Below, one piece after another: positions 329 through 780 of a stretch of 780 nucleotides of DNA (the first letter of the stretch is position 1; every line of letters starts with the position of its first letter). Under the pieces are notes generated by a model. That model made no database searches and had not been told where the DNA came from. It saw only the letters and a list, made by a program, of their open reading frames with translations. Position numbers and translations under genes: made by a program. Origin of the DNA: Escherichia coli (GTDB taxonomy: Bacteria; Pseudomonadota; Gammaproteobacteria; Enterobacterales; Enterobacteriaceae); assembly GCF_003334355.1 (NCBI RefSeq), contig NZ_QOWP01000101.1. One strand, written 5' to 3'.

Positions 329-370
329 CAGGAAAACACAATGCCTTCCACGCCGGATATCGGTTTCTTT

Positions 371-404
371 TTTCACAGACCAAAGTATCATTTGGCCTGT
401 GAAA
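371..404. repeat. Imperfect inverted repeat / predicted stem-loop: 14-nt arms with one A/C mismatch and a 6-nt loop
   Basis: Left arm 371-384 TTTCACAGACCAAA, loop 385-390 GTATCA, right arm 391-404 TTTGGCCTGTGAAA. Thirteen of 14 positions pair; the single mismatch is 379 A against 396 C. It overlaps the tnpA alternative ATG (391..389) and the tnpB candidate GTG (399-401), and is preceded by a T-rich tract (363-373). Confidence 0.6.
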
Positions 405-509
405 CGACTACAGGCATTTAAATTCCAGTTAAGACCAGGTGGTCAACAGGAGCGTGAAATGAGGCGCATGTCGTTTCGTTTTCAATCGTGCTCTGGCGCT
501 TCAGAATGA
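399..509 (+). pseudogene. tnpB: Frame-0 ORF fragment carrying the conserved TnpB N-terminal motif, out of frame with the tnpB body; likely the original tnpB 5' end separated by a frameshift
   Basis: From GTG 399 in frame 0: VKRLQAFKFQLRPGGQQEREMRRMSFRFQSCSGASE, stop TGA 507-509. AFKFQLRP matches the TnpB N-terminal consensus KAYKFRLYPtkeQ. There is no ATG in this frame before 459. After residue M (459-461) the family-like sequence continues only in frame +1 (GACRFVFN from 463). Confidence 0.5.
448..452 (+). promoter_or_regulatory. Shine-Dalgarno-like AGGAG, 6 nt upstream of ATG 459-461
   Basis: AGGAG at 448-452, spacer CGTGAA, then ATG at 459. The ATG is in frame 0, which terminates at 507-509, so it yields only a 16-codon ORF unless the frame is corrected. 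The motif could also simply be coding sequence (QE) of the frame-0 N-terminal fragment. Confidence 0.3.
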
Positions 510-780
510 GAATCATGAGGCCGGTAATAAATACATCCCTTACGGGAAAATGGCTTCCTGGCTGGTTGAGTGGAAAAACGCCACTGAAACGCAATGGCTT
601 AAAGATTCTCCCTCACAGCCATTGCAACAGTCACTGAAAGACCTTGAGCGGGCTTACAAAAACTTCTTCCAGAATCGGGCTGCTTTTCCCCGATTCAAAA
701 AGCGGGGACAGAATGATGCATTCCGCTACCCGCAGGGCGTTAAGCTCGATCAGGAAAACAGCCGTATTTTTCTGCCGAAA
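463..780 (+). CDS. tnpB: TnpB/OrfB (IS605 OrfB family, RNA-guided nuclease family), N-terminal region only; continues past 780; 5' end frame-disrupted, so start is undefined and this may be a pseudogene
   Basis: Frame +1 translation 463-780 has no stops: GACRFVFNRALALQNENHEAGNKYIPYGKMASWLVEWKNATETQWLKDSPSQPLQQSLKDLERAYKNFFQNRAAFPRFKKRGQNDAFRYPQGVKLDQENSRIFLPK. It matches recalled TnpB N-terminal signatures: G-x-CRFVYN (here GACRFVFN), L-x-x-AYKNFF, FP+FKKK (here FPRFKKRG) and I-x-LPK. An in-frame TGA sits at 460-462 directly before the conserved Gly. The first canonical start in this frame is ATG 550-552. Confidence 0.8.

Follow-up and report, generated by a model that had tools for sequence, protein, structure and literature searches.

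A frameshifted tnpB (insQ) with an 11-bp deletion at a 6-bp repeat in the ytfA copy of IS609 in Escherichia coli

In the 780-base stretch of E. coli DNA analysed here (the window), the 5′-end of a tnpB gene is divided between two reading frames. The locus raises the question of whether the split reflects an inactivated gene, a sequencing or assembly error, a programmed ribosomal frameshift, or a shorter protein that starts further downstream, all of which had been put forward in a sequence-only reading of this DNA. The reading best supported by the comparisons below, with a probability of roughly 95%, is that tnpB (insQ) is here a frameshift pseudogene produced by an 11-bp deletion, most likely through slippage or microhomology, and that it represents a derived minority allele of IS609 at ytfA. 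The frameshift itself is already known, as RefSeq flags the gene as a frameshifted pseudogene.

The IS609 copy in ytfA and its tnpA gene

The window spans the left half of an IS609 copy (IS200/IS605 family) located on the chromosome, in ytfA. A megablast search of 5,426 complete E. coli genomes found the window in 4,996, and the top matches extended over all 780 bases without gaps at 99.9% identity. The insertion site in the best matches lies between yjfZ and ytfB, within the split TetR/AcrR-family gene ytfA, and the element is annotated there as a divergent pair comprising tnpA (“IS200/IS605 family transposase”) and insQ (“RNA-guided endonuclease InsQ/TnpB family protein”). At the locus in strain MCJCHV-1 (L001), the two parts of ytfA occupy positions 3609–3923 and 5640–5747. 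The window shares 97.95% identity with the K-12 IS609 over its 780 aligned bases, and a full-length alignment of the L001 locus to the annotated K-12 element reaches both subterminal hairpin ends, which are located outside the 780-base window. Both genes place the element in the IS200/IS605 family: TnpA, a Y1 HUH transposase, matches NF033573, while the RuvC-like and zinc-ribbon domains of TnpB are recovered by NF040570 and Pfam matches. The right-end junction between IS609 and ytfA is found in 1,743 of the 5,426 complete genomes, so the ytfA insertion is widespread, whereas the deletion described below is confined to a minority of genomes. A literature search for IS609 together with TnpB, judged by title and abstract, found nothing relevant.

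The tnpA gene occupies positions 1–391 of the window on the minus strand (PGAP annotation tnpA). It starts at ATG 391–389, and its N-terminal ~130 codons are contained in the window, with the rest beyond the left window end. In the translated MCJCHV-1 coding sequence, TnpA residues 13–138 match NF033573 (transpos_IS200; E = 5.2e-43) over profile positions 2–126 of 126. The translation contains the HUH motif HVHLL, and the catalytic residue would, by analogy with IS608 TnpA, be the tyrosine of the C-terminal RQYIEQ. The tnpA stop codon of strain HH107 (TAG; 143-aa TnpA) is CAG in MCJCHV-1 and K-12 (L001 3960–3968, ~35 bp to the left of window position 1). The MCJCHV-1 tnpA ORF consequently runs into the left end of the insertion sequence, and PGAP describes it as “incomplete, missing C-terminus”. 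In the IS609 copy of the ST1193-type allele, tnpA and tnpB therefore both appear to be damaged. A further disruption is seen in strain J3, where an IS1A is inserted in the 5′ part of tnpA of a deletion-bearing IS609 copy (L002, about 4330–5140, near window positions 359–366) and splits the match to the window into two pieces.

The start codons of tnpA (ATG 391–389, minus strand) and tnpB (GTG 399–401) are only 7 bp apart; this spacer is at positions 392–398 and corresponds to the interval between the coding sequence ends at L001 4391 and 4399. With divergent starts at this distance, the promoter and 5′ untranslated region of each gene must sit within the coding sequence of the other. A simple promoter scan found no sigma-70-like promoter on either strand of the window, and an Rfam scan of the whole window (E ≤ 1) returned no match. 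Pattern scanning, together with minimum-free-energy and centroid folds, identified a plus-strand stem-loop at positions 395–415 (GCCTGTG-AAACGAC-TACAGGC, 7 pairs), which encloses the tnpB GTG start. IS200 occludes the ribosome-binding site of its tnpA, and by analogy this stem-loop could occlude tnpB initiation. The window contains three terminator-like hairpins, compared with 0.7 expected, none of which bears on the frameshift. One of these hairpin and T-run structures (GCCGGATATCGGT TTCTTTTTTC) is found on the plus strand at positions 352–373, within the 5′ coding region of tnpA; the tnpB start is ~25 nt further downstream. Its role could be to terminate antisense transcription ahead of tnpB, or its presence could be a coincidence.

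Two reading frames and a missing 11-bp block

The sequence-only reading had described the 5′-end of tnpB as split over two frames, and translation bears out all of its coordinates, including those of the two stop codons. The 5′ fragment of tnpB/insQ is at positions 399–509 on the plus strand. From GTG 399, frame 0 encodes the 36-aa peptide VKRLQAFKFQLRPGGQQEREMRRMSFRFQSCSGASE, which ends at TGA 507–509 and includes AFKFQLRPGGQQ at positions 414–449. According to translation and alignment to intact insQ, codons 1–23 of this frame are authentic TnpB (VKRLQAFKFQLRPGGQQEREMRR), and 13 out-of-frame codons lead from there to the stop. The authentic segment equals residues 1–23 of intact IS609 InsQ, except for R19, which is C19 in K-12. 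The 36-mer alone is too short to be scored against the family model.

The remainder of tnpB is found in frame +1, where TGA 460–462 is followed by GACRFVFNRALALQNENHEAGNKYIPYGKMASW, open from position 463 to the window end at 780 on the plus strand. This segment (GACRFVFNRAL and onwards) corresponds to residues 26–131 of the intact protein and matches NF040570 (guided_TnpB; E = 4.9e-23) over profile positions 20–138; the intact InsQ homologue matches the same model with E = 1.7e-113. Pfam domains PF12323 (HTH_OrfB_IS605, residues 1–48), PF01385 and PF07282 are recognised in the intact homologue. In the MCJCHV-1 copy, frame +1 runs on without other disruption until it reaches the normal stop beyond the window.

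Alignment to homologous copies, which had been suggested as the way to locate the indel, resolves how the two frames are related. Against both the K-12 IS609 and the intact ytfA copy of strain 219, the window shows one exact 11-bp gap at 461|462 and no further indel. The missing bases are AGGCGCTTCGC. Intact copies read GAAATG AGGCGC TTCGC AGGCGC ATGTCG, whereas the window reads GAAATG AGGCGC ATGTCG, so that the lost block corresponds exactly to one AGGCGC, a 6-bp direct repeat, together with the 5-bp spacer. The sole remaining AGGCGC, at positions 462–467 on the plus strand, is the deletion junction, and any placement of the gap from 461|462 to 467|468 is equivalent. The codons removed are R22-R23-F24 and two bases of A25, and the lesion is located inside the N-terminal HTH_OrfB_IS605 domain. 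When the 11 bp were put back in silico, the window encoded EMRRFAGACRFVFNRAL in a single frame throughout; the same repair of the full MCJCHV-1 copy gave a gene of 1209 nt and 402 codons with a terminal stop only. The indel length is not a multiple of three, and its reversal restores the full ORF, as is characteristic of a frameshift pseudogene. In all four PGAP/RefSeq records inspected, the insQ coding sequence carries a pseudogene flag and the note “frameshifted”. An inactivating frameshift, the first explanation offered in the sequence-only reading, is thus the one borne out by these comparisons.

Loss of one repeat copy and the adjoining spacer is the usual footprint of replication slippage or of microhomology-mediated deletion. 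The anatomy of the lesion makes one of these two mechanisms the most likely origin. Such an event between the two AGGCGC repeats would have dropped the 11 bp, spanning codons 22–25, and shifted the frame. Ribosomes starting at the normal GTG would then make the 36-aa peptide ending at TGA 507–509, while the remaining ~377 codons would stay undamaged in the +1 frame, behind TGA 460–462. The undamaged state of the downstream ORF fits a recent event, and would also fit continued selection. Changes specific to the deletion allele comprise three synonymous and three nonsynonymous differences, a very small sample, and synonymous and nonsynonymous codon differences are about equal in number among all the IS609 tnpB pairs compared.

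A strong AGGAG-ATG initiation signal had been singled out as curious owing to its position at the junction between the frames. This signal was neither made by the deletion nor specific to the junction. AGGAG (449–453) and, after 5 nt, ATG (459–461) span positions 449–461 on the plus strand and are simply part of codons Q17-E18-R19-E20-M21 of tnpB. The same string is present in intact copies, as CAGGAGCGTGAAATG in strain 219 and CAGGAGTGTGAAATG in K-12.

Distribution of the deletion and rival readings of the split

The deleted junction was found in 156 of the 5,426 complete genomes, ST1193 reference strains included, using a 50-nt probe centred on the junction; a full match was needed, and genomes with the intact gene match its first 32 nt only. 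The undeleted junction, queried with a 61-nt K-12 junction probe, is present in 4,919 of the 5,426 genomes, at 10,138 places. Each of the four deletion-bearing copies that were inspected lies in ytfA. A comparison with other copies of the same insertion sequence had also been proposed, and it proved informative at this very site: the two ytfA-locus copies inspected outside the deletion group, those of strains 219 and HH107, both encode an intact 402-aa TnpB.

These counts bear directly on the suggestion that the true sequence is in a single frame and that base-calling or assembly dropped 11 bp of it. Nothing specific speaks for such an error, which could in principle affect any single window. 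Against it stands the occurrence of the identical junction in 156 complete genomes that were assembled independently and span many laboratories, countries and years. Long-read assemblies typically err by 1 bp in homopolymers, and the missing block is 11 bp long and non-homopolymeric. An assembly error is accordingly very unlikely, to the point of being negligible.

Position 112 is the sole difference between the window and three full-length deletion copies, and the J3 copy matches the window in its right-hand part. The haplotype shared by the five aligned copies argues for a single origin of the deletion. Position 112 is C in the window and T in MCJCHV-1, E275a and SUISSEKPC3NDM5 (the three aligned full-length 99.9% matches), a C to T change that alters ...KGVSGRLL... 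to ...KGVSSRLL... in TnpA. The C is also found in K-12 and strain 219; the window therefore comes from a deletion-bearing strain without the later substitution. No intact copy with the exact haplotype of the window was found in the complete-genome collection, where the best match to the repaired window is 99.0% identical. The immediate intact ancestor is thus unsampled in that collection. The marker GGCGCTTCAG (window positions 495–504, queried as 468–527) was considered as a delimiter of the lineage and rejected, since it is common (2,813 records).

ST1193 is a pandemic clone. Strains MCJCHV-1, 09-02E, AVS0096 and MS10711/10858/10860/8320/8324 belong to it (PMC11488385). All of these strains are 99.9% matches to the window. 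Several ST1193 records, MCJCHV-1 among them, hold one IS609 place only, and those strains are therefore without an intact IS609 TnpB.

A programmed +1 ribosomal frameshift, occurring between positions 463 and 506, would give a near-full-length TnpB lacking about four residues. The downstream frame is otherwise undamaged, the SD-like AGGAG is located 5 nt upstream of ATG 459, and the rare Arg codon AGG (462–464) follows that ATG, all of which could be taken to favour recoding. However, AGGAG and AGG are ordinary codons that also occur in intact copies, and the two-frame layout is a derived, minority state (156 genomes) of a gene that is in a single frame in 4,919. The sole heptamer of the XXXYYYZ type in positions 381–520, TTTAAAT at 417, is in the wrong phase and upstream of TGA 460–462. 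By eye, no codon in 462–506 permits re-pairing of the P-site tRNA in the +1 frame. Stimulation of +1 shifting by an SD sequence, as in prfB, requires a spacing of about 3 nt, not 5 or more, and AGGAG is at least 5 nt ahead of the only possible shift codons. The predicted RNA fold of positions 380–520 is no better than that of shuffled sequences (z = −0.86), and the stem-loop at 395–415 within this region has no role in the frameshift. Neither a conserved two-frame layout nor a slippery sequence with a suitably spaced stimulator was found. The sequence-only reading had already rated a programmed shift as the less likely alternative, and with 4,919 single-frame genomes and no well-placed slippery site it is unsupported and highly improbable.

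An N-truncated TnpB could instead be made from ATG 550–552 (plus strand), for instance by re-initiation after the frame-0 stop at 509, with some function kept. In the numbering of the repaired translation this codon is Met55, and it is the first canonical start codon (ATG, GTG or TTG) in the downstream frame, 41 nt past the frame-0 stop. The ORF that it opens continues to the normal stop, and the product would keep the OrfB_IS605 (RuvC-like) and zinc-ribbon/TNB domains. It would, however, lack all of PF12323 (residues 1–48). In TnpB structures, the N-terminal segment supplies the first WED strand and REC helices, by which the duplex of guide RNA and target is held. Also against this start, no clear SD sequence is visible by eye ahead of ATG 550 (acgggaaaATG), and PGAP treats the gene as a pseudogene. 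A functional Met55 product is accordingly improbable. More generally, there is only a slight chance that the frameshifted copy is not inert, whether through a recoded TnpB, a truncated TnpB from Met55, or a 3′ omega-RNA retained without its nuclease partner as a domesticated or regulatory remnant.

Taken as a frameshift pseudogene, the tnpB of the window is a record of the decay of one IS609 copy by deletion between 6-bp repeats. The ST1193 reference MCJCHV-1, with this copy as its sole IS609, has no intact TnpB of that element. The 11-bp deletion could be used to mark the lineage in a simple way, and may be a caveat for the cloning of E. coli InsQ/TnpB from deletion-bearing strains. Otherwise, the gene is a routine frameshift pseudogene in an insertion sequence that was already known, now with its exact lesion defined; no new biological question arises from it, and it matters very little.

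Comparison with known systems

The layout of the window resembles that of known recoded genes, namely IS1 InsAB′, the OrfAB of the IS3 family and prfB with its +1 recoding, in having two overlapping frames and, close to where they meet, an SD-like motif. The recoded genes have a conserved, ancestral two-frame layout and a defined slippery site. Unlike them, the window carries a derived deletion allele (156 of 5,426 genomes) that has no slippery site. An IS1 with an annotated programmed frameshift adjoins the deletion-bearing locus in strain J3.

An IS609-related remnant was also observed in strain 98222, near ybcM/yedF (L005, 2417–3254), in which only an N-terminal TnpB fragment is left, annotated as a “helix-turn-helix domain-containing protein”. 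This strain also has a 174-aa “intact” TnpA, which was considered as a reference and dropped, because its C-terminal third is unrelated to IS609 TnpA.

The K-12 IS609 (NC_000913.3, 1503161–1504908) is the same element as that in the window, with yncK as its tnpA pseudogene and insQ/ydcM as its tnpB. The two copies share divergent tnpA and tnpB genes with starts 7 bp apart, and subterminal hairpin-bearing ends. They differ in the site of insertion, which in K-12 is flanked by ydcL and ydcO and for the window copy falls inside ytfA, and in the gene affected: insQ of K-12 is intact (402 aa) and its tnpA (yncK) has an internal stop, whereas the window copy has the 11-bp deletion in tnpB. The copies of strains 219 (WP_061128813.1) and HH107 (WP_001344082.1) are at the same ytfA insertion site and are 98–99% identical to the window copy after the 11 bp are restored. 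Both keep the two AGGCGC repeats and the full-length TnpB, and the HH107 copy in addition encodes an intact TnpA of 143 aa.
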